DNA of 64,000 bases from a virus (IMGVR_UViG_3300042554_001750); one strand, 5' to 3'. Counted from the first letter of the stretch, positions 7,880-54,074 are shown. Numbers and translations are program-made. The notes: generated by a model from the letters alone, not told the origin.

Positions 7880-7881
7880 AT

Positions 7882-8333: not shown

Positions 8334-8340
8334 TATCTCC

Positions 8341-9375: not shown

Positions 9376-9430
9376 TAACAATTGCCTCTAATAAAAACTA
9401 ACTATACAACAAAACAACTATAAAACAAAA

Positions 9431-9455
9431 GAAAACGGGAATAAATCCCGTTTTC
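9431..9455 (-). terminator. Rho-independent terminator after dnaK
   Basis: GAAAACGGGA-N5-TCCCGTTTTC followed by a T-run on the minus strand. Confidence 0.75.
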
Positions 9456-9458
9456 CTT

Positions 9459-11336: not shown

Positions 11337-11361
11337 ATTTTATCTCCTTTAAAAAAGCAAG

Positions 11362-11403
11362 AATATCGTAGGACCTGTAAGGCATCCTACGATATTATTT
11401 ATA
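11362..11403 (-). promoter_or_regulatory. Late promoter TATAAATA (11396-11403) abutting a 12-bp inverted repeat upstream of dnaK
   Basis: Exact T4 late box; AATATCGTAGGA-N11-TCCTACGATATT. Confidence 0.6.
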
Positions 11404-11414
11404 CCTAAAAATTA

Positions 11415-19679: not shown

Positions 19680-20270
19680 TTACAGTTGTTTTTCAACAAT
19701 CTTTTTTACCGTTTTGTGTAATCCGGGATTTACATGCAATGAATGCGGTACAAGATTTTTACGGATATAGTTGCGTGTATACCGTTCATCTTCGTTACTC
19801 AAATCTTCGCACCATTCTAAATTTTTTCTTTGACACCAATCAATGAGTTCACTTTTAGGTGTAGTAAGAAATGGGCGAATAACATTGCCACGAATAATAT
19901 TAGGCACTTTGGGCTTACCATGCATTGCTGACCAAAGATATGTTTCTACACAATCATCTAAATGATGTGCGGTAATTACTGGTCCCAATGTAGCCAAATA
20001 CTGATAGCGTTCTTCACGCCAAAATTCTTCGTAACTCATATCACTGGGTTTGTCCCGATTTAGCAAACCCAAAAACATAGGTAATTTTCTTTGTGTACAA
20101 AACTTGCTTACAAACTTTAATGCCCGTTCGCTATTCTCTGTACCATGGTGATAGAATGCACAGGCAACATCATGCTTTTTGGATAAGAAATCCACAACAG
20201 CAACACTATCCACACCGCCGCTAAAGGCTACGGTAACTTGTTTGGGCAATGGGAATAATAGTTTAATCAT
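19680..20270 (-). CDS. tilS: tRNA(Ile)-lysidine synthase, catalytic PP-loop domain only
   Basis: AFSGGVDS, TAHHLDDCVET, RPFL, EDLSN, RNYIR; start 20270 lies 6 nt after TATACT. Confidence 0.85.
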   Translation of the reverse strand: MIKLLFPLPKQVTVAFSGGVDSVAVVDFLSKKHDVACAFYHHGTENSERALKFVSKFCTQRKLPMFLGLLNRDKPSDMSYEEFWREERYQYLATLGPVITAHHLDDCVETYLWSAMHGKPKVPNIIRGNVIRPFLTTPKSELIDWCQRKNLEWCEDLSNEDERYTRNYIRKNLVPHSLHVNPGLHKTVKKIVEKQL

Positions 20271-20296
20271 TGTGCTAGTATAGCACAACTTAGAAT

Positions 20297-21001
20297 TTAT
20301 TGAAAGATGTGATGGTTCTGTTCGCCGTAAATCTTAATATATTTTCCAGCAAGTGCATCAGCCATTACCTCAATTGGGCTACCGGGATAACTATCACCCG
20401 GTTGAATCATATTCAATTCACCTTGGCGAACATGCACCAACTCATGGAAAACAGTTCTAAGAATATCTACAAGGTTACGGTTTTTAGCATAAACCCAAAC
20501 CTTATTGGAACCCTCAGTATGGCTACCTGTATGATGACCGTCTTGTGCTTCTTCGGTATCCATGCTAAGTTCTATTTCTGGGCGGGTTTGTAAATTCAAT
20601 CGTTTACGAGCCCAATCCGCAAACTTATTAACTTCATCCTCTAAATCACACTCAACATTTGCTTCGTCTAATTTACCTTTTATCCATTTATCTGGAGTTT
20701 CTTTATACTTTCGTTTAAATTTATTGTGTAATAACTCGCTTGTCATGTGATGGCGTTTAGCGATTTTTCTAATCAATTGATCAATAGTATTGTAATCATG
20801 CTTTGATAAGCTAGGTAACTTTTTTGCTAATTCATGTTCTGGTGATTCATACATGCTTTCGCCGCCGCCACCTCCGTCACCACCATCTGATTCGCCGGAG
20901 CCGAAACCAAAGTATCCGTAACCGGGAAAGAAATATCTACGTAAGGATTTTTTCCTAGACTTAGATTTTTTACGTTCGGTGATAAATTCAGTCGCTCTCA
21001 T
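20297..21001 (-). CDS. Modular protein with C-terminal HExxH metallopeptidase-like domain; putative internal head protein
   Basis: N-terminal MRATEFITE; HELVH...E motif. Confidence 0.65.
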   Translation of the reverse strand: MRATEFITERKKSKSRKKSLRRYFFPGYGYFGFGSGESDGGDGGGGGESMYESPEHELAKKLPSLSKHDYNTIDQLIRKIAKRHHMTSELLHNKFKRKYKETPDKWIKGKLDEANVECDLEDEVNKFADWARKRLNLQTRPEIELSMDTEEAQDGHHTGSHTEGSNKVWVYAKNRNLVDILRTVFHELVHVRQGELNMIQPGDSYPGSPIEVMADALAGKYIKIYGEQNHHIFQ

Positions 21002-21015
21002 AATAAGTATTTATC

Positions 21016-21450
21016 TTAACACCAACTCTGTTTGGCTTCACCGTAATATTCACGGGCAAAACCATTTTGAATCAGCATACTACGAAGGCTTTGTCCGTTA
21101 AGTATAATATCTCCTAGAACACGACCCCCAAACTTATCCCAATCATATAATACAACTTGGCGCTTTTGTGCGTTTGCTACTGCTTGTTTTGTAAATGCAC
21201 TTGCAGCTTGTCCACGCTGATCTTCCTGCGGGCATTTAGCACGGAATCCTTTCTCAGGTGTGTCAACCCCAAAGACACGAACTGCTAGTTCTTTCTTTAA
21301 TGGTGCTGGTAAAAAAGGTGCCTCTATGACTACAGTATCACCGTCATTTACCCTAAGAATATTAGCATCATAAGTTACACCTTGAGGTTTCTTTTGTGCA
21401 TAAGCAGTTGACATTAACGCTAATAAAACTATTGCTATTATTTTTTTCAT
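21016..21450 (-). CDS. Thermonuclease (SNase-like) with signal peptide
   Basis: DGDT, RVFGVDTPE, DKFGGRVLG, NGFA; hydrophobic N-terminus. Confidence 0.88.
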   Translation of the reverse strand: MKKIIAIVLLALMSTAYAQKKPQGVTYDANILRVNDGDTVVIEAPFLPAPLKKELAVRVFGVDTPEKGFRAKCPQEDQRGQAASAFTKQAVANAQKRQVVLYDWDKFGGRVLGDIILNGQSLRSMLIQNGFAREYYGEAKQSWC

Positions 21451-21454
21451 TCTT

Positions 21455-21561
21455 ACTCCGTAATAAAATGCTCACTTTGTAGTTTCACGGTAGCGAATCG
21501 TTACTCCTAAAGCCAGCAGCCGGCTACACCACGCAACGGATTGCGGTCCTAAGGTGGGTTC
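21455..21561 (-). ncRNA. Candidate structured intergenic RNA
   Basis: GC-rich island with CGCAA-UCCG-UUGCG hairpin inside CACC/GGUG, plus AGCC/GGCU and GUAGC/GCUAC pairings; class unknown. Confidence 0.4.
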
Positions 21562-22668
21562 TTAAACTCTTGCTAATACAAATTGATTACCTTCAGCTTG
21601 TGGTTGATTTGCAATTTCTGGTGGTAAATCACTATATGGAATAGGCTTATACCCATATCTACCTGCGAATCTACGAATCATAGCTTGATACGCACTTGTC
21701 CTTGAGCCACCTTTACTCGCAAATAATATATAGTCCGGAACATTTATGTTTTTCAAATATTCGTTGAATGCTTTTAATACCGTAGCAAAAACTTTACCTG
21801 CATCACCTTCGCCAGTTTTTTCATATGTGCCACCTCTAGTGAAATCAAAATCAATCGCATTGATTTCTTCATGTAATGGGGTAAAGATAACTTCAATGTC
21901 ACGACCTTCACTATCATGTGCTACCGCAACATTGGCATATGTTTCATCATCTTCATACCAACTTTCAATTGGAAAAGATTTTTCAACATCAATTGATTCA
22001 TTTGTTTGTTTTTGTTGTGTTATCCATTGTCTAGCTTGTGGCTTGTTGGGCGGTGCGTTCGTAAATTTAACTAATTTTTTATAGGTATTTTGAATTTGAG
22101 ACTCGGTGCTAGCGCCATCACCACTATTGTCTATGATTGACAAATTATCAAATATCTGGGCAAATTTTCCAATATTGTTTTGAACATCATACCAGCTTTG
22201 TACTACCAATTTATCAGGTACAGTTCTTGTTCTTTGTTGATTGCGCTTTCGTGCTACTTCTAATTCTGTGTTGACAACAACAAGAAATGTATTATAACCT
22301 AATGCATCAAAGTTATTTTTTAACTTAGAAACTTTTTCATAGTCGTCGCCGGTACCGTCAATTACAAGACCCAATCTCCCGTCAATTGCTAGTTCTGATT
22401 TATCAGCAGTGATATCTTTTGCTTTTTGTCTTACAACATCACGCTTTTCTTTTTCTTCAGGTGGCATTTTAGGATCAATTGCATGTTTTTTCATTAGATA
22501 TTCAAAAGCAATATCACTATTGATGTTTACATATCCTAAAGCCTGTAACCCTAATTTTTGAGTAACATAACTTTTACCACTTCCGGGACCACCGATAATA
22601 AACACTGCTTTGAAAATAGCAGGGTCATTTACACCTTCACTGACATTAGTGAATTCTACGGCTCTCAT
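21562..22668 (-). CDS. P-loop kinase (zeta-toxin/AAA_33-like) fused to a GNAT-like module; putative internal head protein
   Basis: N-terminal MRAVEF..VSE; GGPGSGKS, IDGTG, RNQQR; C-terminal TGEGDAGKVFATV module. Confidence 0.7.
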   Translation of the reverse strand: MRAVEFTNVSEGVNDPAIFKAVFIIGGPGSGKSYVTQKLGLQALGYVNINSDIAFEYLMKKHAIDPKMPPEEKEKRDVVRQKAKDITADKSELAIDGRLGLVIDGTGDDYEKVSKLKNNFDALGYNTFLVVVNTELEVARKRNQQRTRTVPDKLVVQSWYDVQNNIGKFAQIFDNLSIIDNSGDGASTESQIQNTYKKLVKFTNAPPNKPQARQWITQQKQTNESIDVEKSFPIESWYEDDETYANVAVAHDSEGRDIEVIFTPLHEEINAIDFDFTRGGTYEKTGEGDAGKVFATVLKAFNEYLKNINVPDYILFASKGGSRTSAYQAMIRRFAGRYGYKPIPYSDLPPEIANQPQAEGNQFVLARV

Positions 22669-23111
22669 TATGCACGCTGTTTCTTAAGTATGCTACGCAA
22701 CATCCAGCCATGTTTGCCATGTGCGTCAATGCGACTTGCTATGAAATCAGCAATGCCCTGTTCGTTTTCTTGTTCAGCAATAGGAAATGCTTGTTTCCAC
22801 ATGTTTAATAATGTGGCATTGTCTTGTTGTAATTCTGCAATCATTAATTCGGCACGAGGAATTTTAGTTTGATCTGGTATTTGGCTTAGTTCAGCAAAGC
22901 GAGTAATAGAACCAGGTGTATAACTATCTAATTGACGAATTAATTCTGCTGTTTGGTCAATAGCGTTATCATATACTTCTTCGTACAAATTACCTAAAAA
23001 CTCATGGTATTGTGGGAAATCTGGACCTTCCACATTCCAATGAAAGTTTTGTGCTTTAATTACAAAAGCATAGCTTGTTGCTAATAATGTTTTAAGTGCG
23101 TCTGCTAACAT
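22668..23111 (-). CDS. dps: Dps/ferritin-like DNA protection protein
   Basis: HWNVEGPDFPQYHEFLGNLYEE, DQTAELIRQL, HGWML. Confidence 0.9.
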   Translation of the reverse strand: MLADALKTLLATSYAFVIKAQNFHWNVEGPDFPQYHEFLGNLYEEVYDNAIDQTAELIRQLDSYTPGSITRFAELSQIPDQTKIPRAELMIAELQQDNATLLNMWKQAFPIAEQENEQGIADFIASRIDAHGKHGWMLRSILKKQRA

Positions 23112-23120
23112 AAATTACCT

Positions 23121-23240
23121 TTAATTATTTTTTGCAAATTCTGCTAATAAATCTCTTGCATGAGAAAAATCAATTGCCTGACAGTTGAAATCTTTCCATT
23201 CACCGCTTGCACATAACACTCTGAAATTGTATGTTTTCAT
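23121..23240 (-). CDS. Small hypothetical protein, 39 aa (not in ORF track)
   Basis: MKTYNFRVLCASGEWKDF...; TAATG overlap with the upstream gene. Confidence 0.55.
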   Translation of the reverse strand: MKTYNFRVLCASGEWKDFNCQAIDFSHARDLLAEFAKNN

Positions 23241-23935
23241 TATTTCTTTCTACCCTGACAATGTGCTCTTTGACTGAATCCTTTTGGATTAGAACAGTTA
23301 ATGCTACGCTTGTATTTTTCAGACCACTTTTCGTTAATTTCTTCTTCGTTGGTCATTGCCATAATACGGCGTTGTCCATGGCGCTTGAACTTATCAGTTT
23401 CTTGCTCATAAGTACCGGGCATCGGTAAGCCTTTACCACCACCGGTGTGAAATTCTTGGTCTGTGCCTTCTTCTACACTTTCAGATTTGTTGCCCCAGTT
23501 GCTAGCACCTTTTTTACGGCACTTAACTAATGCGCCACTAGCATATGCAGAAGGCCATACTTTGTAACGGCTCTTTACTTTGTAGTAGCAAGCATCCTTC
23601 TTTTCATTAATCATTAATTCGCTAAACATTGCCCCACCACAATGTGGACATTTTTCTTCCATTACGCCTTCATTTGATTTTTTCTTAGTAGCAACATTGA
23701 TTGCCTTGCCACTGCGCTCTGGATTAGGATCTTCTCTGCGCTTTTTACTAGCCGCATACTTGCGACCTTTCTTACCCAATGAATGTGCTTTTGCTTGTGG
23801 TAAACATTTTGGCTTACCTTCGCTATCATCACCTCTAGCACATGCGCCACGAATCTTACCATCAGGACCAAATCTTACCCACTTCTCTTTAAACCATTTT
23901 CTAAGATTTTCAGTAATGATTTCATTTGCTCTCAT
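23240..23935 (-). CDS. Modular basic/Cys-rich protein; putative processed head polyprotein
   Basis: MRANEIITE start; short modules each following an x-N/E-E site. Confidence 0.7.
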   Translation of the reverse strand: MRANEIITENLRKWFKEKWVRFGPDGKIRGACARGDDSEGKPKCLPQAKAHSLGKKGRKYAASKKRREDPNPERSGKAINVATKKKSNEGVMEEKCPHCGGAMFSELMINEKKDACYYKVKSRYKVWPSAYASGALVKCRKKGASNWGNKSESVEEGTDQEFHTGGGKGLPMPGTYEQETDKFKRHGQRRIMAMTNEEEINEKWSEKYKRSINCSNPKGFSQRAHCQGRKK

Positions 23936-24341
23936 TTTGTAAGCCCTTCATGATAGCACTTTCTTTTGGTACACAATTAGGTACCATTTTGTCACCCTTC
24001 TTTTTCATACCAACTTGCTTATGGGTGTCCCAACATTTCTCATCTAATTTCTCTATTTCAGCTTGATTAGGCACATGTCTTGGCTTGTAATATCTTTGTG
24101 CTTGTCCCGCGCCACCACCAGTAGAATAAATTTGACCTTCGTCTACTTCTAATTCTTTTTTGGTTGCTTTTACAATTCCACTGAATCTTTTGTTTGCTTT
24201 AGCTATTTTTTCTTGGGACTTAGGGTCATCTACATTGCTAAATGCTTCTTTATCTAAACGGCTGGCTTCTGCACCAGCTTTCTTTTTGTAACTTGCTAAT
24301 GTTGCAGGACTTAACTCAAATAAAAATTCAGTAGATTTCAT
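23922..24341 (-). CDS. Modular basic protein; putative processed head polyprotein
   Basis: MKSTEFLFE start; modules LSPATLASYKKKA and KCWDTHKQVGMKKKGDKMVPNC follow E sites. Confidence 0.7.
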   Translation of the reverse strand: MKSTEFLFELSPATLASYKKKAGAEASRLDKEAFSNVDDPKSQEKIAKANKRFSGIVKATKKELEVDEGQIYSTGGGAGQAQRYYKPRHVPNQAEIEKLDEKCWDTHKQVGMKKKGDKMVPNCVPKESAIMKGLQNESK

Positions 24342-24342
24342 A

Positions 24343-25152
24343 TTAGTCCTTTTTTACTTTTTCAGGTAAACCCTTATGCTTTGTGGCAGCAAAATCTTTA
24401 ACATCGCCTTTAGTCATAGATTTAGCAACGCCTTTTAGTTCTTTGCTTGCACCTTTAATTTTTGCACCCTTTTGCATAGCATGTGCCATACCAAAGAATT
24501 TCTGTTGTGCTTTACTGACTGCTTTTTCATTTACCTTTGATTCACCTACGCCTCCACCTGCAATGACACCACCTGTCATTTCTTGCATCATTTTTTCATC
24601 ATAGTATTCTTTTACTGCGTTTAGATAATCATTGGCTTTGATGAGTTTTTCTTGTACCCAACCTTCAATGCCTTCTTCTTCGCTGCGGTTTTGTAGTAAT
24701 TCATAAATTGATTTAGCATTCTTCATTGTTGCTAAAACATCGCTGCGAGCCATTTCAACTTCGTGGTCTACACGACTTTGACCATGCTGTACAAAGCCTG
24801 TTTTACGCTTCATTTTTGTTCCTGGAACAATGATTACATCATCTTCATCTAATTTAGCTTCTTCAACTTTTTTCTTATCATCCTGATGTTGTTTGATTTT
24901 TTCTTCTGTATCTTTTTTCTGCTTGTTAGACTTATCAACATTTTTTTGTAGTTTACTTAAAAAGTCTTTTTTAGCTTCAGAAATACTATTAGCGTATGGG
25001 CCTTTTTTCTTTGCCTTACCAGACATAACCTTTTCTGCTGGTTCAAGACCTTTTACATCAGGTCTTTTTTGTGTTTCGCCCATTGGTTTAGCAACAGTGG
25101 CGACTGCTCCTGCAGTTGTCATTTCATTAATGATAATTTGATTGATTTTCAT
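24343..25152 (-). CDS. Modular protein; putative processed head polyprotein
   Basis: MKINQIIINE start at 25152; GATAAATA at 25176-25183. Confidence 0.7.
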   Translation of the reverse strand: MKINQIIINEMTTAGAVATVAKPMGETQKRPDVKGLEPAEKVMSGKAKKKGPYANSISEAKKDFLSKLQKNVDKSNKQKKDTEEKIKQHQDDKKKVEEAKLDEDDVIIVPGTKMKRKTGFVQHGQSRVDHEVEMARSDVLATMKNAKSIYELLQNRSEEEGIEGWVQEKLIKANDYLNAVKEYYDEKMMQEMTGGVIAGGGVGESKVNEKAVSKAQQKFFGMAHAMQKGAKIKGASKELKGVAKSMTKGDVKDFAATKHKGLPEKVKKD

Positions 25153-25197
25153 AGTAAAGTTCCGAAATAATATAGTATTTATCAAAATACCATCTAA

Positions 25198-27720
25198 TCA
25201 GAACTTCCCACTGGGTTTGAGTGTTGGGGGTATTCCTGCACGACTAATCTTGTTACCGAACTTTTTAGCGTCTTTTTTCATGGTGTCGGGCTTAATATCT
25301 ACAGTTAATGCTGTTTTGAATCTTGGATCATTCTTTTCTGCGTTGCTAGGAATATATCCTGAAGCACCCTCTGCTACACCTTTATTGGTATTTTCTATTC
25401 GTTTTAATTTGTATGAATTTGATCCAGGTTCTTCTCGTTTTTGTACTGTATATCCTAAACCAGTAGCAAATCGTTGAACTAATCTGTCGTATAGTTTTGT
25501 TCTGCTACCTGTAGGATCATCTTCTTTCACTGCGGAGAAAAATAAACTTGCAGGTTTTTTCTTCTTTATAAACTGTTGTATCGCATGTAATACTGTAGCA
25601 AAGATTCTTTGAGCATCACCTTCGCCGGTTACTGCCTGACTGTTATTTCTATAGAATTCAACCATCCAATTCTTTTTATATTCATTGTTGAACATGATGC
25701 TAAGATTAGTTCCATCTGGTAACTTAGCCAATGCGTCATAGTCTCCGTAGGCACTTTTCTCCCACTTAAGTGGATAGGGTTGGTCAAAGCCTTCATCAAC
25801 TTTAGGTCTATAAGTTCTCCATCCGCCGGGCTGCACACCTACTGGACCTGATGTGTCGGGCATCTCACTAATTGCCCCGCGAAACTGTCTATCTTTTAAT
25901 CCACCATATGGATTGATAGCAGGAGTTTTCTCACCGGCGAATTGCAGTGTCTCGTCTTCCCCTAATCCTCTAACTCTGTCAAAGAAACTAGGAGTAGGTT
26001 TACCTTTTACTTCTCCATGTCTTTGATGTTGACCTGCATAGTCATAGTACTTACCTACAACATCAAATCCATGTGTAAAGAATATAGCAGCTGGTGGAAG
26101 GCTCATCCGTAACATACCCACACGCTGTTTACCTTCTGGTGCTTGTACAACTTTATTGTCACCGTGTTTTACTTTTTGAAGCCATGCATTTGGTTTGAGT
26201 CTTACTAACCATACATAAGGTTGTTCGCTAGCATAAGGCTTATCGTCTTTGAGATAATAACTTAATGGATAAAACCATAATGCTCTGCGCCCTTGTCCGG
26301 TTCCTATATAATCTACATCAAATTTAGGGTCATCAACATCAGGTGTTTGTCCAAACCCTTGTTTGGCACTGAATCCTAATTTATCACTATCCGTAAATCG
26401 TACAAAGTACTCATTGATATTACCGCCATTTTTCTTAACATCGTTGATGATTTGTTGACGAACACTAGGAACCTTTGCTTCGTTGACATTATATGTAGGA
26501 TCAACTTTCTGACGAGGGATGCCTTTAGGTTGTTTAGGATCAAATGGGTCAATATCAGTTGTAGATAGACCTGTCTTTTGTAACGCTTTAATGTATTGAT
26601 GTTCTAAATCTTCATCACCGAATGCCATGACAGTACTAGGAGGTCCCTTACCAAAGTCATGCTTGCCTAAACCCTTCATATTACTAATGTGTTGTCCTAG
26701 TTTGTACCAGTCATACACATCACTAACATCAACTCTTACTGTACCTGCCGGCATTGTTGGTTTAAACTCTGGGCCCGGAGGAGGTCCATTTGGATCATAA
26801 TCTTCGTTTGTTCCGTCAGATGGTTGCCAAACTATATCTGTAGGATTTACTTGATGCTTTTTAACTAAGAAGTTGATAGCGTTATCTAAATTGTTGTATG
26901 GTAAATTTTGTAAAATTTTAGTAAGGCTATATTTACTTAAATCTTTACCTTGCATCCGACGCAAATACAAATCAATTAATTGTTTTGGATCTTTGTATAA
27001 AATATTTTCTTCAATACTTAAATCAATACTATGCAATTTGTCACGCAATTGGTACAGTTTATCAATGTAACCCTGTGTGCGTAGTGCTTTATATGCTAAG
27101 TTTTCGGGACCAAACTCACCACCTTTATCTAAGCCTGCTTTTCTATATCGTTTAATAGTAGTAATAATGTTTTCAATTTGTTCTAGGTCTTTAGATTTTA
27201 ATGCTTTCTTAATAATATGTAGTAGTTTATCGTATTTTTGTTTGGTGATGGTTTGGTCAAAATTTGCTCTGCGTTTTGTTGGAATCTTTAGCCACTTATC
27301 TTGTAAAATGCTATACTCGCCTAAACTGACTACAGGTTCATTGCTGTCTTGTACATATAATTCAACTGGAACTCCGTGTACAGTTATGTCGTGGCTATCA
27401 TTATATAAATTCTTTTTTGCTGTGAAAAGTTCTTTGTAAACTTCATTATCGGGAAGCTTACTCATATCTACTAATATATGTAAATCTAAATCGCTATGTT
27501 TTGTGTATGTATATGCGGCGTTTGAGCCTGAAATTGTAATATCTTTTACATCTAAATCTTTTATTCCCAATTCATCAATAAAATCTTTAGCGATTAAAAT
27601 TAACTGGTTTTTTACTTCAGGATGTAATTTATTGTTCTCATCCCATAGGTTTTGATTCAATTCATCATGAAAAAAGATGGCGTCGCTTAATTTGAAAGAT
27701 TCCAGTGTTTTAATGTCCAT
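25198..27720 (-). CDS. Multi-module protein: N-terminal Pol-beta-family nucleotidyltransferase plus about five further modules
   Basis: GS...SDLDLH NTase motif; modules bounded by IEE/TNE/VNE/ISE/VDE/VAE. Confidence 0.7.
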   Translation of the reverse strand: MDIKTLESFKLSDAIFFHDELNQNLWDENNKLHPEVKNQLILIAKDFIDELGIKDLDVKDITISGSNAAYTYTKHSDLDLHILVDMSKLPDNEVYKELFTAKKNLYNDSHDITVHGVPVELYVQDSNEPVVSLGEYSILQDKWLKIPTKRRANFDQTITKQKYDKLLHIIKKALKSKDLEQIENIITTIKRYRKAGLDKGGEFGPENLAYKALRTQGYIDKLYQLRDKLHSIDLSIEENILYKDPKQLIDLYLRRMQGKDLSKYSLTKILQNLPYNNLDNAINFLVKKHQVNPTDIVWQPSDGTNEDYDPNGPPPGPEFKPTMPAGTVRVDVSDVYDWYKLGQHISNMKGLGKHDFGKGPPSTVMAFGDEDLEHQYIKALQKTGLSTTDIDPFDPKQPKGIPRQKVDPTYNVNEAKVPSVRQQIINDVKKNGGNINEYFVRFTDSDKLGFSAKQGFGQTPDVDDPKFDVDYIGTGQGRRALWFYPLSYYLKDDKPYASEQPYVWLVRLKPNAWLQKVKHGDNKVVQAPEGKQRVGMLRMSLPPAAIFFTHGFDVVGKYYDYAGQHQRHGEVKGKPTPSFFDRVRGLGEDETLQFAGEKTPAINPYGGLKDRQFRGAISEMPDTSGPVGVQPGGWRTYRPKVDEGFDQPYPLKWEKSAYGDYDALAKLPDGTNLSIMFNNEYKKNWMVEFYRNNSQAVTGEGDAQRIFATVLHAIQQFIKKKKPASLFFSAVKEDDPTGSRTKLYDRLVQRFATGLGYTVQKREEPGSNSYKLKRIENTNKGVAEGASGYIPSNAEKNDPRFKTALTVDIKPDTMKKDAKKFGNKISRAGIPPTLKPSGKF

Positions 27721-27730
27721 AAAGTATTTA

Positions 27731-27826
27731 TTACTTTTTTGGATCTTTGTTTTCTTTGACGGGGACTGGAATAGGATTTGGTCTGTATGGAGGATTTTTT
27801 GGAGGTCTATGTCTAAACCAACTCAT
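27731..27826 (-). CDS. Pro-rich peptide, 31 aa (not in ORF track)
   Basis: MSWFRHRPPKNPPYRPNPIPVPVKENKDPKK; GATAAATA 5 nt upstream of ATG. Confidence 0.5.
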   Translation of the reverse strand: MSWFRHRPPKNPPYRPNPIPVPVKENKDPKK

Positions 27827-27846
27827 AAAAATATTTATCGTAGCCA

Positions 27847-27872
27847 ATAAAAAAGCCCCTTTCGGGGCTTTT
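27847..27872 (-). terminator. Rho-independent terminator (bidirectional-looking)
   Basis: AAAAGCCCC-GAAA-GGGGCTTTTTT. Confidence 0.85.
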
Positions 27873-27873
27873 A

Positions 27874-28767
27874 TTACTGAGCGATTTCGTTGCCGTTTTG
27901 ATCAACTAATTTCATACCCTTGTTTCGCTGTTCCTGCATCCACATGGGTCCAACAGTATTCAACAAATGTTGTTGATTTTCCATGCAGAAAACATAAGAA
28001 CCTGAATGGCGTAGTAATACTCGCTTGTCTACCCAAATCTTACCACCAAGATCACGCCAATTTTCACAGAATGTCCAGTCCTCTGAATAATAACGGTTCT
28101 GACGAACTGCGGTATCAAAGTAGGTCTTCAAGTGTTGATCGTACTTGGGATCTAAGCCGATATCGTTCTTGTATTGCTTAACTGCAGGGTGAGTCTTAAG
28201 CTTTTCAAATACATGTCGCTTCATTAACAAGAAGCCCGTACCAGCTTTTGATACTTCCTGCAATCCATCAGGACCTTCTTCCGCACCCTCAAATCCATTG
28301 ACAACCCACTTGATGGGCATAGTCTTCATTGGATAAAGGCCTGCCATTACATCCTTGTCACGGTTCAATAGAACTAACAAGTGCCATGGTTCCCAACCAA
28401 TATCAGCGTCAACAAAGAACAAGTGAGTAGCATCGGGCATATCCAAGTATTTGGCAGTTAATGTATTACGGGCACGTGAAATTAATGATTCATTAACCAT
28501 TGTTTCTAATGTCCAATCAATGCCAAGTTGACGGGCAGTATTTGCCCACTTGATGAAACTCATAAATGTAGATTCAGTTAGCATACCACCATAGCAGGGC
28601 ATTGCTATATGTACTTTAGTAGTGCGCAAGTAATCTACATTAACCTGAACCTGCCCTTGGGTGTTTTCGGCAGGCTGTTGTGGTTGTTGTGCTTGTTCAG
28701 CTAGTTCTTGAACCTGTTCAACAGGTACAGTTGCAGCTTCGGTTTTCTTTGACTTTTTTGTTGCCAT
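27874..28767 (-). CDS. GT-A-fold glycosyltransferase-like protein
   Basis: HIAMPCYGG, SLISRARN, FFVDAD (DxD), GTGFLL, SEDWTFC. Confidence 0.7.
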   Translation of the reverse strand: MATKKSKKTEAATVPVEQVQELAEQAQQPQQPAENTQGQVQVNVDYLRTTKVHIAMPCYGGMLTESTFMSFIKWANTARQLGIDWTLETMVNESLISRARNTLTAKYLDMPDATHLFFVDADIGWEPWHLLVLLNRDKDVMAGLYPMKTMPIKWVVNGFEGAEEGPDGLQEVSKAGTGFLLMKRHVFEKLKTHPAVKQYKNDIGLDPKYDQHLKTYFDTAVRQNRYYSEDWTFCENWRDLGGKIWVDKRVLLRHSGSYVFCMENQQHLLNTVGPMWMQEQRNKGMKLVDQNGNEIAQ

Positions 28768-28818
28768 GTATTCCTCTTAAAAATATAAGATTATTTACAT
28801 GGTATAACGGTGATCAAA

Positions 28819-29865
28819 TTATTTTTCTTCTAGATAATCTAGATTTTCACTTTCAGTTATAGCAGCGATGCCCACGCCTACCCCTGCACTTGCTAATGTG
28901 TATTTGATTGTATCTTTCCAATTTTTACCATTAATGCGTGACACTAATGTTGGAATAACAGTATTAAGTATTCCTTGTAGTGCTAGATTAGTCTGTTGTG
29001 GATTTAGTCCCATACTTTGTGCAGAATTTAACACACCACCTGCTAATAATGCACCGACTGTTGTAATAATGCCACCTTGCAAGTATGGGTTCTCTTTGCC
29101 CTTTTTAAGTATGTCTAGTACTTTTCTTCTGATCGTAGGATCATCAGTCTTACTTAATAATTCACGTGCCTGATCAACATAATCAGGCACTTTTTCTTTT
29201 TGTACATCAGCTATAACTGGCTTATAGAAATCAATTACTGCGTTCGCTACTGGACTTGTTTCTTTATCTTCCGCCACATCTTGTGCGCCCATAACCTGAT
29301 CAAACATACCAACAACTGTTTGTGCTAATTTAGGATTCTTTTGTGCAGCAGGATACAAACTCATAACAAGTGCTGTCTTGCGTTTGTCATTCAATGTAGG
29401 CCATGCCTTGCGAATTTCTGTAGCACTCTTGATGCCGGGTCCAAATGTCACAGTGGGTAAATATGCCATGTAAGCATGTTTACTAAATGGTTGTAAATCT
29501 TTTCCTGTATATGGTTGAAAGTAAGCTGGGCTACCATCTTTCTTTGTTCCGCCAGGCTGTGGAGCTTCATTTCTATCTTTTTCACTGCGAACAAATATTA
29601 GTACATCTTCGTCGGGATTATAATTGCTTGTGATTTCTTTTGCCTGAAATGGACTCTTAACTTGAACAAATCTTCCTGGTGCTACACCTGCTAACTTAGC
29701 TAATTTTTCTTTTAGTGCGAAGGGAAAAGGTCTTTCGCTTTGATCGTTTGTAGCAGCTACATATACATCAGCATTTGGAAATGCTTTTAATGCAGACTGG
29801 TATAACGCATAGTGTCCTGCGTGAAATGGATGAAACCCACCTGGCATTATAACAATCTGTTTCAT
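28819..29865 (-). CDS. HxGH nucleotidyltransferase domain plus C-terminal module
   Basis: PGGFHPFHAGH, SATEIR; second module begins after DVAE. Confidence 0.7.
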   Translation of the reverse strand: MKQIVIMPGGFHPFHAGHYALYQSALKAFPNADVYVAATNDQSERPFPFALKEKLAKLAGVAPGRFVQVKSPFQAKEITSNYNPDEDVLIFVRSEKDRNEAPQPGGTKKDGSPAYFQPYTGKDLQPFSKHAYMAYLPTVTFGPGIKSATEIRKAWPTLNDKRKTALVMSLYPAAQKNPKLAQTVVGMFDQVMGAQDVAEDKETSPVANAVIDFYKPVIADVQKEKVPDYVDQARELLSKTDDPTIRRKVLDILKKGKENPYLQGGIITTVGALLAGGVLNSAQSMGLNPQQTNLALQGILNTVIPTLVSRINGKNWKDTIKYTLASAGVGVGIAAITESENLDYLEEK

Positions 29866-29866
29866 A

Positions 29867-30253
29867 TTAATAACTCAATTTAACGAATTGAAGGGTACCG
29901 TTATTAAACCCTTCTAACTTTGCTCTCATATACACGAAATTGCCTTCAATGTTTGTATAAACACTGGCATTGCTTGCTAATTGGGGAGCACTATTCGGTG
30001 TGGCATTTGCGTCAGCAACTAATTCATAGACTTTAAACCAGTCGTCAGCAGTTGGGCTTGTGGCTAAACTAGCCTGGATCACAATGTTACCAGTTAAATT
30101 TGTACATTTAATGTTAACAGTTTGTAAATCTCTGTTACCGAGATAATAAGCGGCTGCAGGCTGGCTATTACCAGTAACGGTATAGGGAGCACCGTTACCT
30201 GGATTGACATATGAGGTCTCGGGCAAAAGTATTAATGTAGTTGACTGTGGCAT
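29867..30253 (-). CDS. Hypothetical beta-rich protein (possibly virion)
   Basis: ORF in the late cluster; TAATG coupling. Confidence 0.7.
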   Translation of the reverse strand: MPQSTTLILLPETSYVNPGNGAPYTVTGNSQPAAAYYLGNRDLQTVNIKCTNLTGNIVIQASLATSPTADDWFKVYELVADANATPNSAPQLASNASVYTNIEGNFVYMRAKLEGFNNGTLQFVKLSY

Positions 30254-30423
30254 TATTCAGCCCCCACAACCTCAACAATAACACCCTCACCTACTAATTC
30301 TTGGGCTACTTGTTCTAATGCTTGCTGGATATCGCGGTTAGCGAGAACTTTTACATCAGCCTCGCTATCCTTAACAATCTTACTAAATTTTACTACTAGA
30401 ACATCTTCTACAATTTTAGCCAT
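30253..30423 (-). CDS. Hypothetical protein, 56 aa (not in ORF track)
   Basis: MAKIVEDVLVVKFSKIVKD...; GGAG SD and late promoter upstream. Confidence 0.7.
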   Translation of the reverse strand: MAKIVEDVLVVKFSKIVKDSEADVKVLANRDIQQALEQVAQELVGEGVIVEVVGAE

Positions 30424-30450
30424 AAATACTCCATTATTAGAGTATTTATC
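30422..30450 (-). promoter_or_regulatory. Late promoter within an SD/AUG-sequestering hairpin
   Basis: ATAAATACTC-N8-GAGTATTTAT(G). Confidence 0.65.
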
Positions 30451-30453
30451 ATT

Positions 30454-31173
30454 TTATTCTGTATCTGGTCGCTTTTCTAGTTTGTACTTTCTTCCCAAAA
30501 GATCACCGTGCATTATGGCTAGATAACTAAGTGTGGATTCATCGTCATAATCAATGAAATACGCAGAGCTTAGGTAAAAGCTTTTCCATCTACTTATGTT
30601 ATCTAATCCAAATAACCACTTTTCCAATGCCCTGCTTGGATTTAAGCTTTTATTGTTTGAAAGTAGACTTCCCAAATCATTATAGATACTGTTCTCAATT
30701 CTTTTGGATTTAAGATAAACGCGGTACTTATGTGGGGGATCACCTACAAAATACTTAGTCCCCTTGTATTCAGCACAAACAGCTTCTGTAAAGTCTACAT
30801 TATTAGCCCAAGTTTTTATATCTTGCAAAAACTGTAAATCATTACTAAATATCGCGGCTGTTTCACCCTCAATTCTTATGGAAGCATTTTTATTTTTCTT
30901 AAGATTGTTTTTAAGATCAATAAATTTTTCCATAGTGGGTGACATGTTAAGCATTTCTACTTTTTCTTGAGGGGTATAAGTACGACTCCATGTTTTACCA
31001 TTCCTTACTTTGTCTCGCCACTCGTCAATGGTTTTGACCCAATAAGTAAATCTAACTCCAGGTAATACAACCCTGGCTCGGTACTTAAATTTATTAAAAT
31101 AATCCATGTCTCGGTATTCATAATAATGAATACCGGGCACGTTATCAACTGACCTCAATAATCCCATCTTCAT
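30454..31173 (-). CDS. Hypothetical protein, 239 aa
   Basis: Long ORF; two similar halves (YKYRA/YRVY motifs). Confidence 0.75.
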   Translation of the reverse strand: MKMGLLRSVDNVPGIHYYEYRDMDYFNKFKYRARVVLPGVRFTYWVKTIDEWRDKVRNGKTWSRTYTPQEKVEMLNMSPTMEKFIDLKNNLKKNKNASIRIEGETAAIFSNDLQFLQDIKTWANNVDFTEAVCAEYKGTKYFVGDPPHKYRVYLKSKRIENSIYNDLGSLLSNNKSLNPSRALEKWLFGLDNISRWKSFYLSSAYFIDYDDESTLSYLAIMHGDLLGRKYKLEKRPDTE

Positions 31174-33409
31174 TCACCTTCGCTGTCATTTTATTACTTA
31201 CAACGAATTCTACAGTATCGTTAGCAAGATTAACAACAATATTGGCATTTTTGATTTGTTCAAAGAGAATTTTCTTACTCAATGGAACACGAATCAATTC
31301 GTCAATTTTTCTTGCTAACGGACGAGCGCCCATCTTTTTGTCATATCCTTTATCAGCGAGGTACTCAACAACTGATTCGGTAAGAGTCAAGGTAATGTTA
31401 TGCTTTTCAACTAAGGACTTCTTAAGGTCTTCAGTAAACTTAATAACAATCTTCTTAATAGAAAGCATATCCAACTTGTTAAACTTACAAACCAAATCAA
31501 GACGGTTTCTGAATTCAGGCTTGAAGAATTCTTTCAATGCTTTGTCATCTTCACCAATTTTATCTTGGCTACCAAAACCAATATTCAACCGTTCACCATC
31601 GGCACTACCCAAATTACTGGTCATGATAATGATAGTATTCTTGCAACTGACCTTTTTACCATTACTCCCTGTGATAGTACCTTCATCAAGCATTTGTAAG
31701 AAGATGTTAAAGATATCAGGGTGCGCCTTCTCAACTTCGTCAAACAGCATGATAGCATGTGGATTCTTGCTCAAGTCTGAAATCAAACGACCACCTTGAA
31801 CTTGACTGTCTCCGAAGCCAACATAGCCAGGAGGAGGTCCGATCAATGAACTGACAGAGTGCTTTTCGCTGTATTCTGACATATCATACTTGAGCAACGG
31901 CATGTCAAGATTTTTACCCAACAACTTTGCAAGTTCAGTTTTACCTGTACCCGTTGGGCCCAAGAACAAGAAGCTTGCAGTAGGCTTAGTGTCATTACCG
32001 ATTCCAGCAAATGACACATATACTCTTTCAAGTACCTGTTCTACCATTTCATCTTGACCATAGAGTTTACCCTTGACATTTACTTCAAGATTTTTAATCT
32101 TGTCAAGATTGTTGTTATTGAGTTTATTTGCAGGAACACCTGTGTACTTCTCAACTTGTTCGTAAATCAGATCCTTAGTGATATCTGCTCCTGTATTTTC
32201 AAGCACCCGTTGTTTTGCGCAAGCCGCATCCAACAAGTCAATACTCTTATCAGGATTTTTACGGTCGTTAATATAACGCTGAGACATTTCTACAGCAGTA
32301 ACAATAGCTTCTTCAGTAATGTTTACATTATGGAAATCATTAAGTCTAGGACTTAGACCTTTCAAGATACGGATAGTAGATTCATTAGAAGGTTCATCAA
32401 CAGAAATTTTGTAGAATCTACGCATCAACGCACGATCCTTTTCAAAACTTTCGTAGAATTCTTCCCATGTTGTACTTGCAATAACCTTGAGTGTTCCCTT
32501 AGTAATTGCTGGCTTGATCATGTTAGCAAAGTCTACCGAACCATTGCTACTTGATCCTGCACCTTGCATAGTGTGTGCTTCGTCAATAAAAAGGATAGCG
32601 TTCTTTTTAGTGTTAAGAGCATCAAGGACATGCTTTACCTTTTCTTCAAAGTCACCGCGATACTTACTACCTGCAAGCAGACTTCCGATTTCAAGTGAAT
32701 ACAATTCATATCCATTGAGGAAATCAGGAACTTCATCGTTTGCAAGAGCATTAGCAAGTCCTTCTACGATAGCAGTCTTGCCTACGCCCGGATCTCCCAC
32801 CATCAATACATTTGATTTAAAACGCTTGGCAAGAACATTGATAATGTCATCCAATTCTTTGCTACGACCAATAACTGGTTCTAGCTTATTGTCTCTTGCA
32901 AGTTGTGTAAGATTAGTAGTGTACTCACCTAGAATTTCTTCAGCTTGAGATTCAGTAAGTGTACTTTGATAGTCGCCACCCTTATATGACTTTTGCCAAT
33001 GCTGAACAAATTCATTTTTGTTTACGCCATACTTCAACAAAAAATAATGTGCGTGACTGTTACCCTCACTGGCAATACTCAAATACAAGTCAATAGTAGT
33101 AACTTGCCTGCGTCCAGTAAACAGAACTTGTGTTACTGAACGGTTCATAACTCTTTCTAAGCTATTTGTTTTTCTCGGTGCAACATCTGGCTCTTTGCTT
33201 TGAATTGCATGCAAGCCATTGAGATATGCATCCAATTCATGGCTCAACAAATCTACATCTGCTCCGAAGCTTGTTAAGCATTTCTTAAATGGGGGATGTT
33301 GTACCAAAGCCAAAAGTAAATGTTCCACTGTACAGTAGATATGTTTTTTACTTTTGGCATATTGAATTGCATGCTCAATGATGTTTTCAATTTCGGGAGA
33401 ATTTGTCAA
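31145..33409 (-). CDS. clpA: ATP-dependent Clp protease ATP-binding subunit ClpA-like
   Basis: Clp-N domain, GDPGVGKT and GPTGTGKT Walker A motifs, IGFG ClpP-docking loop, no ClpB middle domain; TTG start. Confidence 0.93.
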   Translation of the reverse strand: MTNSPEIENIIEHAIQYAKSKKHIYCTVEHLLLALVQHPPFKKCLTSFGADVDLLSHELDAYLNGLHAIQSKEPDVAPRKTNSLERVMNRSVTQVLFTGRRQVTTIDLYLSIASEGNSHAHYFLLKYGVNKNEFVQHWQKSYKGGDYQSTLTESQAEEILGEYTTNLTQLARDNKLEPVIGRSKELDDIINVLAKRFKSNVLMVGDPGVGKTAIVEGLANALANDEVPDFLNGYELYSLEIGSLLAGSKYRGDFEEKVKHVLDALNTKKNAILFIDEAHTMQGAGSSSNGSVDFANMIKPAITKGTLKVIASTTWEEFYESFEKDRALMRRFYKISVDEPSNESTIRILKGLSPRLNDFHNVNITEEAIVTAVEMSQRYINDRKNPDKSIDLLDAACAKQRVLENTGADITKDLIYEQVEKYTGVPANKLNNNNLDKIKNLEVNVKGKLYGQDEMVEQVLERVYVSFAGIGNDTKPTASFLFLGPTGTGKTELAKLLGKNLDMPLLKYDMSEYSEKHSVSSLIGPPPGYVGFGDSQVQGGRLISDLSKNPHAIMLFDEVEKAHPDIFNIFLQMLDEGTITGSNGKKVSCKNTIIIMTSNLGSADGERLNIGFGSQDKIGEDDKALKEFFKPEFRNRLDLVCKFNKLDMLSIKKIVIKFTEDLKKSLVEKHNITLTLTESVVEYLADKGYDKKMGARPLARKIDELIRVPLSKKILFEQIKNANIVVNLANDTVEFVVSNKMTAKVNEDGIIEVS

Positions 33410-34209
33410 TTTGTGTTTCCTTTGTTTTTATAGCTTAAAATGCTTTGAATTACTTCATCATCTATTCTATCAGGAATGAATGTTTTTAGTACAATGAATT
33501 GGTCCCCATATTGACCCGAATTCATCTTGGGCATGCCTTGATTTGGAATCTTAAGATGCATGTGTGGCTGTGTTTTGGGTTGGATATTAACTTCTAATGT
33601 TTTACCCGATATTGTTTTGAATTCAAATGTTCCCCCTACTATCAAATCAAAAACAGACACAGTATGTTGGGAGTATAAATCATCACCCTGTCGTTCAAAT
33701 TTTAAATTGTGAATAATAACATATTCTACAATCAATGTGGCATTATCTAATACATTATCATACCTAAGTTGTTGCCCATGATGTATACCTTTGGGTATTT
33801 CTAAAGTAACAACCTTAGGTCCTTGGGGAGTTTGCAATTGTAAAATATGTGATTTACCGTTATACGCTTCATCTAATGTAACGGCTACCTGTGTTCTAAA
33901 GTTTTGTCTATGAAATCCCTGATGTCCTTGTTGCCCAAACATCTGACCAAAAATTTCGTCAATATTAAAACCATGTGCATGGAATTGAAATCCACCAGGG
34001 AACCCATGCATATTGTGGGCATGTGGATTATCATGTTGTGCCCGTTTTGCAGGGTCACTTAATATGTCGTATGCTTGTTGTATTTTTTGAAATTGAGCAG
34101 TATCGCCGCCGCGGTCAGGATGATGTTGTGCTGCTAGTTTTCTATATGCTTTTTTTATTTCGTCGGGAGTAGCATTTTTAGCTACTCCCAAAGTTTGATA
34201 GTGGTCCAT
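33406..34209 (-). CDS. dnaJ: DnaJ/CbpA-type co-chaperone (J domain plus C-terminal domain, no Zn finger)
   Basis: DHYQTLGV, HPDRGGD, GQYGD. Confidence 0.9.
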   Translation of the reverse strand: MDHYQTLGVAKNATPDEIKKAYRKLAAQHHPDRGGDTAQFQKIQQAYDILSDPAKRAQHDNPHAHNMHGFPGGFQFHAHGFNIDEIFGQMFGQQGHQGFHRQNFRTQVAVTLDEAYNGKSHILQLQTPQGPKVVTLEIPKGIHHGQQLRYDNVLDNATLIVEYVIIHNLKFERQGDDLYSQHTVSVFDLIVGGTFEFKTISGKTLEVNIQPKTQPHMHLKIPNQGMPKMNSGQYGDQFIVLKTFIPDRIDDEVIQSILSYKNKGNTN

Positions 34210-34819: not shown

Positions 34820-35371
34820 TTACATCCCTGCTATTGCTTTTAAATTTTTGATTTCTTGGTCTTGTGCTTCTTGAGTTGGTTTAGTTGCAAGTCCAGCAAT
34901 TTCTCTCATCTCATTTAATTCTTCTTCGTTTTCTTTTTCTTTTTTATAAACATTTGGATTTGTAATAATTACCTGACGCAATACATGTTCATCAGCATCA
35001 TAATCCTCATCATCAACTTGTACAGTCCACTCAGTTAATTTTAATCCTGTCAAAGTTTTTAGGTCTGAAAGTAATTCTACGATGCGACCAGGTACAGTTG
35101 ATCTTCTGCTTAATTCAACAAATACTAAGTATTTTCCAATGTCAATCTCACTGTCACTTAAACTAGCATCTAAAACCCAGTCATAACCTCTTTCAAACCA
35201 ATCAACTAAATCATTTCCTACTTGTTCGGATTTTACTGTGAAAGCTAAAGTAACTATGTCTTTATCTTCACCCATTTTAGCCGCATACTCATCTACTGTA
35301 ACGGTAGGAAAAACTTGATTTTCCATATCGTGAAAATCTAAGCCTTCAGTAATAAAAATTCTATCTTTCAT
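34820..35371 (-). CDS. Hypothetical protein, 183 aa
   Basis: Long ORF; N-terminal ..FITE. Confidence 0.75.
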   Translation of the reverse strand: MKDRIFITEGLDFHDMENQVFPTVTVDEYAAKMGEDKDIVTLAFTVKSEQVGNDLVDWFERGYDWVLDASLSDSEIDIGKYLVFVELSRRSTVPGRIVELLSDLKTLTGLKLTEWTVQVDDEDYDADEHVLRQVIITNPNVYKKEKENEEELNEMREIAGLATKPTQEAQDQEIKNLKAIAGM

Positions 35372-35949: not shown

Positions 35950-36116
35950 CTTGTATTTATCAAGATATAAAAGAAATTGAAAGATTGAAATTTTTACCCT
36001 TAGCCTAATATTTATCTAGGAATTTGTGTAAAAACATGCACATTTTACAGTATGCATGACCTTTTTAAATAACATTGAATGTTGCAACATTTACTGCTCT
36101 TAAAAAGGAGAAAAAC

Positions 36117-45977: not shown

Positions 45978-45978
45978 T

Positions 45979-53444: not shown

Positions 53445-54074
53445 TTATTTGTTAAACGCAGCACCGGTTTGTGGTTTGGCTGGTCTTGTAATCTTTGACA
53501 TGGGGCTTTCTTTGCCCATTGATGCCATATATGTTTCTGGCTTGAAGGGATCAAAACTATCAGGTGTTTTCTTACCTTCATATGGTATATCAATTTTGTC
53601 GTCTTTAGTTTGATCTTTAATGCTGTTTAGATAACTATTGCCATATGCATCACTAGCTTCTTTAGCGCCTGGTGCACTTCCCATTTCTTCTTTAGTTAGT
53701 AATGGGTCTTGACTCATTTGATTTACATAGTCATCATGTTCAGTATTAATACTGTCATCATACTTTGTAGAAACAACACGAACAGCATTTACATTATAAC
53801 CAAGCAATTGAGCAATTTGTTGAATCATTGGCTCTGTTGCTGGATATCTAAATTCGCATTTAATAATTGTCACAGGGACATTACTCATATTAGGAAAACC
53901 ATATGGGTCTTTCTGAATAGGAGTTGATTTTGGGGTATCAATTTTGATAGGATCAAACTTCTTTAGATTGTAGGCAAACATATCTAAGAAGTTCTTATCC
54001 ACTTCACCCGCAATTTTAATAGTGTAATTATATGTATGTACACTTTCTACGATGTATTGTTTAAGGCTTCGCAT
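53445..54074 (-). CDS. Hypothetical late protein
   Basis: GATAAATA at 54094-54101; MRSLKQYIVE start. Confidence 0.75.
   Translation of the reverse strand: MRSLKQYIVESVHTYNYTIKIAGEVDKNFLDMFAYNLKKFDPIKIDTPKSTPIQKDPYGFPNMSNVPVTIIKCEFRYPATEPMIQQIAQLLGYNVNAVRVVSTKYDDSINTEHDDYVNQMSQDPLLTKEEMGSAPGAKEASDAYGNSYLNSIKDQTKDDKIDIPYEGKKTPDSFDPFKPETYMASMGKESPMSKITRPAKPQTGAAFNK

Follow-up and report, generated by a model that had tools for sequence, protein, structure and literature searches.

The internal proteins of bacteriophage T4 (IPI, IPII, IPIII, and Alt) are made with an N-terminal propeptide of ∼10 residues that ends in (L/I)-x-E, and both IPII and IPIII start with MKTYQEFIAE in the T4 record. The first 10 residues of IPIII are enough for packaging, and the protease gp21 cleaves after L/I-x-E (PMC9026906). 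Here, we describe a gene cluster in IMGVR_UViG_3300042554_001750, a stretch of viral DNA of 64 kb that we call the window, whose products carry N termini of the same kind (for example, MRATEFITE) followed by modules bounded by (V/I/L/T)-x-E sites. We put at roughly 70% the probability that this tagged block encodes cargo that is packaged in the head, cut apart by a prohead protease of the Peptidase_S77 family, and delivered with the DNA. The block, at ∼20.3 to 27.7 kb, is probably the head cargo of a jumbo myophage resembling Rak2 and Atu_ph07, and the cytidylyltransferase gene at 28.8 to 29.9 kb is probably part of it as well.

The likeness to T4 cargo extends to mature parts that are variable, often basic, and cassette-like, to genes that look late, and to the S77 protease found in relatives of the window phage. 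In contrast to the T4 internal proteins and Alt, each of which matures to one protein and has propeptides at its termini only, many of the precursors described here are multi-module chains bounded by sites. They also differ from T4 in position P3 of the site, which may be V or T, and in content, with kinase, DNA polymerase β-type (Pol-beta) nucleotidyltransferase (NTase), zincin, and GNAT-like enzymes that are not known from T4 cargo. For the window phage, packaging, cutting, and ejection are predictions. Pfam and PHROG searches returned no similarity to IPI, IPII, IPIII, or Alt, a result of little weight given that T4 internal proteins are hypervariable.

Polyvalent proteins are strings of 2 to 15 effector-type domains, including a zincin peptidase, kinases, GNATs, and Pol-beta NTases (Iyer, Burroughs, Anand, de Souza, and Aravind 2017, PMC5512222). 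As in the window cluster, several unrelated effector domains occur per chain, and the proposal is that they travel with the DNA and are freed by proteolytic cutting (PMC5512222). Such combinations are present here as a kinase joined to a DUF6934 module and as an NTase joined to middle regions, a DUF6934 module, and a basic tail. However, the polyvalent model invokes release by an embedded MPTase zincin and no address tag, whereas our proteins have joints of prohead-protease type and a tag of T4 type; that work (PMC5512222) makes no reference to marine phages, to Synechococcus, or to Pelagibacter.

The inner-body and ejection proteins of phiKZ and SPN3US are likewise head cargo of jumbo phages, cut after Glu, often at several sites, by a diverged gp21 homologue (gp175/gp245) (PMC9026906). 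Their motif is S/A-x-E, whereas P3 of the joints described here is L, I, or V, with neither S nor A among the leading residues. Moreover, their propeptides are discarded and do not separate enzyme modules, and these phages form a different lineage. Finally, kinases and cytidylyltransferase- or NMNAT-like proteins, homologous or analogous to those of the cluster, have been detected by mass spectrometry in purified virions of cyanophages S-CREM2, S-CRM01, S-CBWM1, S-SZBM1, and S-SCSM1 (PMC10665884). Kinases and cytidylyltransferases recur in cyanophage virions, and these enzymes have been proposed to enter the host (PMC10665884). Unlike the tag and joint rule that we put forward, the reports on these virion enzymes give no packaging signal or processing, and the terms "capsid targeting," "propeptide," and "cleav" do not appear in the text of PMC10665884. 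Our literature search found no paper linking a capsid-targeting sequence (CTS) to cyanophages, pelagiphages, or Rak2-like phages. What is new here is putative cargo of the T4 CTS/gp21 type that takes the form of multi-module chains with a content like that of polyvalent proteins, together with its link to virion proteomes.

N-terminal tags and module joints

In order to locate tags, we searched the six-frame translation of the whole window for the pattern M[KR]xx[EQ][FILV]x{1,5}E and required a further 50 residues or more after it. Five matches were obtained in total (starts at 21001, 22668, 23935, 24341, and 25152), all on the minus strand inside 4.2 kb and each at the first ATG of its open reading frame (ORF), so that 5 of the 75 predicted genes carry the strict motif. 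The first-pass annotation of this DNA had singled out these five N termini as T4 CTS-like, and the confinement of the pattern to them bears this out. It had also treated positions 20297 to 29865 as one set, which holds for the five tagged genes but not for three interspersed genes without a tag that encode a nuclease with a signal peptide, a Dps-like ferritin, and a phrog_1574 protein.

Internal module boundaries had been placed at (V/I/L/T)-x-E, and the sites listed for them (LDE, TNE, INE, VEE, VDE, ISE, VNE, and VAE) are all present. We searched a large protein collection with the kinase protein and obtained >5700 homologues, and the 120 best of these metagenomic sequences were used for counting. 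Directly before the kinase, (L/I/V)-x-E occupied P3 to P1 in 78 of 80 distinct upstream contexts, compared with a background of 0.031 per position. P3 was L in 23 cases, I in 20, and V in 13, and P1 was Glu throughout except for one Met. The chain stops at the kinase in 19 proteins; it goes on in 95, of which 90 have φ-x-E (φ, hydrophobic residue) within 16 residues. This second site is followed by >12 unrelated modules, including the polybasic stretch of the window HExxH protein and the tail module of the 840-residue protein. N-terminal kinases (start G-[IVL]-x-D-P) were preceded by VKE, IQE, VQE, IEE, LQE, INE, LKE, or VSE, and kinases buried in chains of 780 to 1200 residues by LTE, LNE, or VTE. 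A 9-residue propeptide was present in 81 of 116 homologues. Together, these comparisons uphold the predicted boundaries and show modules reshuffled at the E sites.

The same placement was observed for other modules in a set of 13 related viral contigs (labels such as L002 to L014), 8 of which are syntenic relatives with 65 to 85% protein identity; the related IMG/VR fragments measure 35 to 78 kb and are rated 12 to 30% complete. Four small basic modules (KWSxKYKRSINC, DACYxKVKSRY, CW...PNCV, and LRKWF) change protein and position, always right after φ-x-E, and the same modules are N-terminal, internal, or C-terminal depending on the phage, always behind φ-x-E. For example, L002, L007, and many metagenomic proteins carry the last module of the 231-residue window protein behind the kinase. 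Multi-module chains of 1100 to 1200 residues occur in L011, L012, and L013; L011 and L013 have one such chain that starts with a cytidylyltransferase and continues with the HExxH zincin, kinase, and basic modules, parts that are separate genes in the window. Within the window proteins, PHROG and Pfam envelopes begin within a few residues of sites (10, 110, 211, 100-101, and 641). In the AlphaFold model of the 368-residue kinase protein, the predicted local distance difference test score (pLDDT) fell below 50 only at residues 1 to 11 (the tag), 95 to 97, and 222 to 225 (the TNE joint).

Two further observations concern these elements. A (K/Q)GVAE joint is found repeatedly ahead of modules that are unrelated to one another (window ∼25366-25383, residues 780 to 785 of the 840-residue protein; L004:4724; L005:6873; L012:2751), and its DNA differs at silent positions. 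In addition, a 109-residue ORF beside the gp114 polyprotein gene of S-RIM8 A.HR1 (L014, 3407-3733, minus strand) starts with MKSYNEFISE, which is the nearest to T4 MKTYQEFIAE among the N termini seen.

Homologues in virions and proposed processing of the precursors

We examined two published virion proteomes, those of Atu_ph07 (PMC6102473, Table S5) and of the T4-like cyanophage S-CREM2, the latter from CsCl-purified virions (PMC10665884, Table 3). Relatives of the cluster proteins were present in both, as expected if such proteins are packaged: gp53 and gp54 in Atu_ph07 and ORF154, ORF155, ORF156, and ORF160 in S-CREM2. Atu_ph07 gp53 is a homologue of the window kinase protein and consists of an N-terminal domain, the kinase, and two DUF6934 modules, connected at VTE, LTE, and LNE (gene numbering was matched by exact mass: gp53, 87,074 Da; gp54, 56,489 Da). 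It was detected in virions with 31 unique peptides and 45.5% coverage, which places it among the virion proteins with the highest coverage, and was most abundant in gel band 9 (PMC6102473). This band is the peak band of 18- to 23-kDa proteins, which places the gp53 peak ∼65 kDa below full size; the pieces predicted from cutting at the joints have sizes of 27, 23, 14, and 17 kDa.

The migration of gp53 bears on the main alternative, namely, that the proteins are packaged with only the tag removed, or with nothing cut, the φ-x-E joints then being flexible linkers or recombination seams in an intact polyvalent delivery. We consider this alternative unlikely. It fits poorly with the reduced size of gp53 at its peak, and a linker would have no need of the T4 gp21 rule that the joints follow, with Glu (one Met aside) at P1 and L, I, or V at P3; moreover, the joints are disordered and exposed in the fold model. 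In its favor, what has been shown for the homologues is presence in virions, their cutting being predicted, Atu_ph07 gp54 runs near full size (band 4), the recurring (K/Q)GVAE joint acts like a shuffling seam, and some polyvalent proteins, such as the N4 virion RNA polymerase, are packaged unprocessed (Iyer et al., PMC5512222).

We then scanned the annotated genes in 131 kb of the Atu_ph07 genome for the N-terminal motif M[KR]x(2-4)[LIFVM]xE. Genes with the motif were in the virion list in 12 of 13 cases, versus 47 of the 151 genes that lack it (Fisher p = 2e-5). The record also contains a paralogue array, gp055 to gp062 (43318-50592), with products of ∼29 to 31 kDa each that start with M[RK]WxQL[TNI]E, plus gp063 (MRLFQLLE); gp055 to gp063 were all detected in the virion at about full size and form a large family of tagged cargo.

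In S-CREM2, the virion list includes ORF154 (a cytidylyltransferase), ORF155, ORF156, and ORF160 (PMC10665884), which start with MKNFSSFLTE, MSRFEE, MKKLISE, and MSSLSE, respectively, all short peptides ending in φ-x-E. A tagged cytidylyltransferase is also found in HTVC008M (MKTLKE). The 231-residue window protein is 47% identical over 156 residues to ORF160, and the NTase module of the 840-residue window protein is 37% identical to ORF156 (E 1e-41). As for the protease, a Peptidase_S77 of the T4 gp21 type was found in all four complete relatives (Atu_ph07, as gp204; HTVC008M; S-RIM8; and S-CREM2, as ORF143), with T4 as a positive control. We infer that the window phage encodes an S77 protease in its own genome and that each site is cleaved.

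Several points weigh against the reading of the block as packaged and protease-cut cargo. No S77 protease was found in the window, where there are no head genes, or in five related fragments, whose completeness of 12 to 30% makes the absence from them uninformative. Virion presence is known from homologues in Atu_ph07 and S-CREM2, the window phage itself being known from its sequence. The Atu_ph07 proteome was obtained from phage purified with polyethylene glycol (PEG) and includes probable contaminants, gp53 was present in 11 of the 13 gel bands, and 10 of the 12 virion motif genes are paralogues, the count by family being 3/4 (p = 0.10). The 348-residue cytidylyltransferase-like protein has no direct similarity to S-CREM2 ORF154 at E ≤ 1e-3, and both this protein and the 840-residue protein are without the canonical tag. 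Ejection into the host would follow by analogy with T4 only, and the conserved xxE might be a structural part of each domain and not a cleavage signal. In addition, φ-x-E also occurs inside folded domains, for example, within HExxH, and therefore the motif alone is no predictor of cutting. Counts of [LIVMFT]-x-E exceeded those of shuffled sequence in the 231-residue (p = 0.002) and 269-residue (p = 0.005) proteins only, with no enrichment in the other five of the seven (the kinase, HExxH, 139-residue, 840-residue, and cytidylyltransferase-like proteins). Raw φ-x-E enrichment, absent in most proteins, was dropped as an argument, and the evidence lies in the position of the sites.

These counts, and the frequency of φ-x-E that is expected in Glu/Lys-rich sequence, would suit a view of the motifs as products of chance or composition and of the proteins as ordinary cytoplasmic phage enzymes. 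Such a view is hardly credible in the face of a tag motif confined to these genes in the window, a site in 78 of 80 contexts against a background of 0.031, and homologues in virions.

In the mechanism that we propose for packaged, protease-cut cargo, late transcription would yield precursors with a propeptide of 9 to 11 residues, M-[RK]-x-x-[EQ]-[FI]-x-x-E. This propeptide would be the counterpart of the T4 CTS and would, in a targeting role that we infer, dock the precursors to the scaffold core of the prohead. A gp21-type Peptidase_S77 would cut after Glu in exposed (L/I/V/T)-x-E sites, removing the tag and severing the disordered joints between modules. The freed modules (P-loop kinase, Pol-beta NTase, M78-like HExxH zincin, GNAT-like DUF6934, and small Lys/Arg-rich two-Cys peptides) would stay in the head with the DNA and enter the cell at infection, where they would presumably act on the host.

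Gene content and setting of the cluster

The genes of the cluster, possible further members, and the copies of a putative promoter element are listed in Table 1.

Table 1. Cluster genes, interspersed genes, candidate members, and octamer copies in the window
Feature	Coordinates	Strand	Details
234-aa tagged HExxH protein	20297..21001	minus	Tag MRATEFITE 20975-21001; zincin module 20300-20662
SNase-type nuclease with signal peptide, untagged	21016..21450	minus	Syntenic in relatives; outside the tagged set
368-aa tagged kinase protein	21562..22668	minus	Tag MRAVEFTNVSE 22636-22668; joint QTNE 21997-22005; DUF6934 GNAT-like module 21565-21996
Dps/ferritin-like protein, untagged	22668..23111	minus	Interspersed gene
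231-aa tagged protein	23240..23935	minus	Tag MRANEIITE 23909-23935; four or five small basic Cys-bearing modules
139-aa tagged protein	23922..24341	minus	Tag MKSTEFLFE 24315-24341; LDE(101) followed by a basic CW...PNCV module at the C terminus
269-aa tagged protein	24343..25152	minus	Tag MKINQIIINE 25123-25152; Lys-rich spacer, conserved helical core, DUF3008 after VNE(209)
840-aa multi-module protein	25198..27720	minus	N terminus MDIKTLE; Pol-beta NTase 27007-27675; DUF6934-like 25369-25791; basic tail 25201-25368
Conserved gene of unknown function, phrog_1574, untagged	27874..28767	minus	Interspersed gene
348-aa cytidylyltransferase-like protein, no N-terminal tag	28819..29865	minus	VAE(199) joint; hydrophobic C-terminal half; LDYLEEK tail
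183-aa protein, possible further member	34820..35371	minus	Start MKDRIFITE; matches phrog_13138 "virion structural protein"; outside 20297-29865
209-aa protein, possible further member	53445..54074	minus	Start MRSLKQYIVE, 10-residue T4-like spacing; amid tail and neck genes; no PHROG match
Octamer ATAAATAC	21007-21014, 25175-25182, 27724-27731, 30442-30449, 35953-35960, 51348-51355, 54589-54596, 55476-55483, 60996-61003	minus	
Octamer ATAAATAC	61048-61055	plus	

In the 368-residue protein, the tag is followed by the P-loop kinase (residues 12 to 221), the QTNE joint, and the DUF6934 module. The kinase module matched Pfam Zeta_toxin/AAA_33, and its fold matches were adenylate, dephospho-CoA, and polynucleotide kinases and zeta toxin; judged from sequence and model, it is a generic P-loop kinase. 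A fold search with the two-domain model returned kinases alone, and the C-terminal module was folded separately. This DUF6934 module, common to the 368- and 840-residue proteins (the Pfam match in the former is weak), gave a model with a pLDDT of 87 and has a conserved TGEGDA..FATV motif. The top 50 PDB matches were nearly all GNATs but weak ones (E 7e-4 to 2e-2, TM 0.35 to 0.49), so that the model is weakly GNAT-like at the fold level. Among the effectors named in the first-pass annotation, the kinase, the Pol-beta NTase, and the HExxH zincin hold, and the GNAT-like assignment stands in this weaker form.

The order in the 840-residue protein is MDIKTLE, NTase, two middle regions, VDE(643), a DUF6934-like module, GVAE(784), and a basic tail. 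Syntenic relatives L004, L005, and L007 lack the gene, which therefore behaves as a cassette. Residues 415 to 541, after the VNE(414) joint, weakly resemble the S-CREM2 ORF156 NTase (26% identity, E 3e-4) and may be a second, degenerate NTase-like domain. Modules of the 231-residue protein are each preceded by φ-x-E (ITE9, INE111, VEE156, and INE202), and homologues of the 269-residue protein in L004, L005, and L007 start with MKI[KN]DI[YF]E. The C termini of cytidylyltransferase-like proteins are conserved as (L/I)DYL(E/P)E(K/N) in the window (28819-28845), L005 (∼2640-2667), and L007 (∼2305-2332), and the regions preceding them differ; this tail may be a C-terminal signal.

The 234-residue protein is composed of the tag, a polybasic/Gly-rich stretch, a helical module, LDE(113), and the HExxH zincin module; residues 118 to 234 are conserved in 8 related loci, and the N-terminal part is variable. 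Structural neighbors of the HExxH module in the Atlas were viral clusters, some with Peptidase_M78, and elsewhere the module is fused to CTP_transf_like, NTP_transf_2, NT5C, SOD, and DUF6934 proteins. A search of the protein against Pfam gave no match, MPTase-PolyVal included. This module could itself process the chains, in the cytoplasm or after delivery, with the prohead protease uninvolved, as in the MPTase release model for polyvalent proteins (PMC5512222). Zincin-driven release would be compatible with the tagged gene of its own that encodes the module in the window (20297-21001) and with its embedding in the L011 and L013 chains. However, a zincin in cis is missing from most tagged chains, both those of the window and those of the 120 homologues, Glu at P1 with a hydrophobic P3 is the known S77 specificity (PMC9026906), and the structural neighbors are M78-like, with no Pfam match to MPTase-PolyVal. 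The zincin thus fits the site specificity less well than does cutting by an S77 prohead protease, and we regard its role as the releasing enzyme as very improbable.

The small modules are very basic, with up to 22% K+R, and in this resemble the T4 internal proteins, which are rich in Lys and contact DNA (PMC3012670). This composition raises the alternative that the tagged proteins are mainly structural or physical contents of the head, such as scaffold/core components or DNA-condensing basic peptides, and not effectors directed at the host. The core proteins of T4, too, are cleaved at numerous L/I-x-E sites (PMC9026906), and an acidic, site-rich protein of 667 residues is encoded amid the late genes. 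Nevertheless, it is hard to see a structural role for kinase, NTase, zincin, and GNAT-like enzymes, and gene content varies among close relatives, as expected of accessory cargo; we judge a mainly structural role quite improbable. The 667-residue late protein (51426-53429) is of low complexity, starts with MDFKSMLNQLSQLSE, contains >30 φ-x-E sites, and might serve the same protease as a substrate of the scaffold/core type.

The octamer ATAAATAC had 11 matches in the window versus 5.2 expected, and 10 of these lie just upstream of gene starts. It precedes cluster genes at 21001, 25152, and 27720 as well as the tail-sheath, tail-tube, and neck genes. The octamer, close to T4 TATAAATA, is probably the late-promoter core of the window phage. 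The cluster genes had been called late from the start, and the sharing of this sequence motif with the tail-sheath and tail-tube genes fits that assignment. The copy at 35953-35960 lies ahead of both the 183-residue candidate gene and its upstream neighbor, which matches phrog_12928 "virion structural protein." Predicted sigma-70 promoters and intrinsic terminators of the block did not exceed those of shuffled sequence, and Rfam gave no match at E ≤ 0.1 in 20000-30500, including the intergenic region 21451-21561 upstream of the nuclease gene.

The window phage is a T4-related jumbo myophage whose family B DNA polymerase is nearest to those of Sinorhizobium phage Phosso, Agrobacterium phage Atu_ph07, and other Rak2-like jumbo phages (42 to 48% identity). 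The minus strand holds nearly all window genes. The tail genes encode a 1189-residue tail sheath and a tail tube. The sole DNA-level match to cultured phages was a 50-base, nearly identical stretch in Synechococcus phage polyproteins, corresponding to a module of the 139-residue protein. Nucleotide and sugar-modification genes are present in addition to chaperones. The chaperone set is complete (9459-11336, 33406-34209, and 31145-33409): it comprises Hsp70/DnaK, a DnaJ that includes the C-terminal domain, and a ClpB/ClpA-like AAA+ protein with two rings. From Pfam assignments, the 572-12590 block comprises PTPS/QueD-like, weak radical-SAM, DAO-type flavoprotein, GMP reductase/IMPDH-family, NAD epimerase, and two GT1-like genes. 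Amid the tail fiber genes there is an endolysin-like gene (phrog_181; 45979-46602), and a deoxynucleoside monophosphate (dNMP) kinase gene (61395-62027) adjoins that of the tail sheath.

Implications for phage head cargo

A tag and joint rule would explain how kinases and cytidylyltransferases enter cyanophage virions. If the reading of the block as packaged, protease-cut cargo is true, the T4 CTS/gp21 system extends from single small proteins to cleavable multi-enzyme chains, a natural format for modular protein delivery that is comparable to the fusions engineered with the T4 CTS. The zeta-like kinase, Pol-beta NTase, M78-like zincin, GNAT-like DUF6934, and two-Cys basic peptides would then be candidates for early functions in host takeover or counterdefense, and the functions of these modules are accessible in laboratory phage-host pairs such as those of Atu_ph07 or S-CREM2.

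In a broader form, to which we give about even odds, the prohead and its S77 protease would act as a general protein loader across marine T4-like and Rak2/Atu_ph07-like phages, with packaging, cutting, and delivery of any module that follows an M[RK]xxEFxxE tag or, in a tagged chain, an (L/I/V)-x-E joint. One short joint would then serve as both cleavage site and seam for module exchange, and such a loader would give rise to combinatorial, fast-evolving arsenals with thousands of metagenomic variants. If cargo is specified in this way, the head contents of thousands of uncultured aquatic phages, and with them the proteins present in the host at the onset of infection, would become predictable from sequence.

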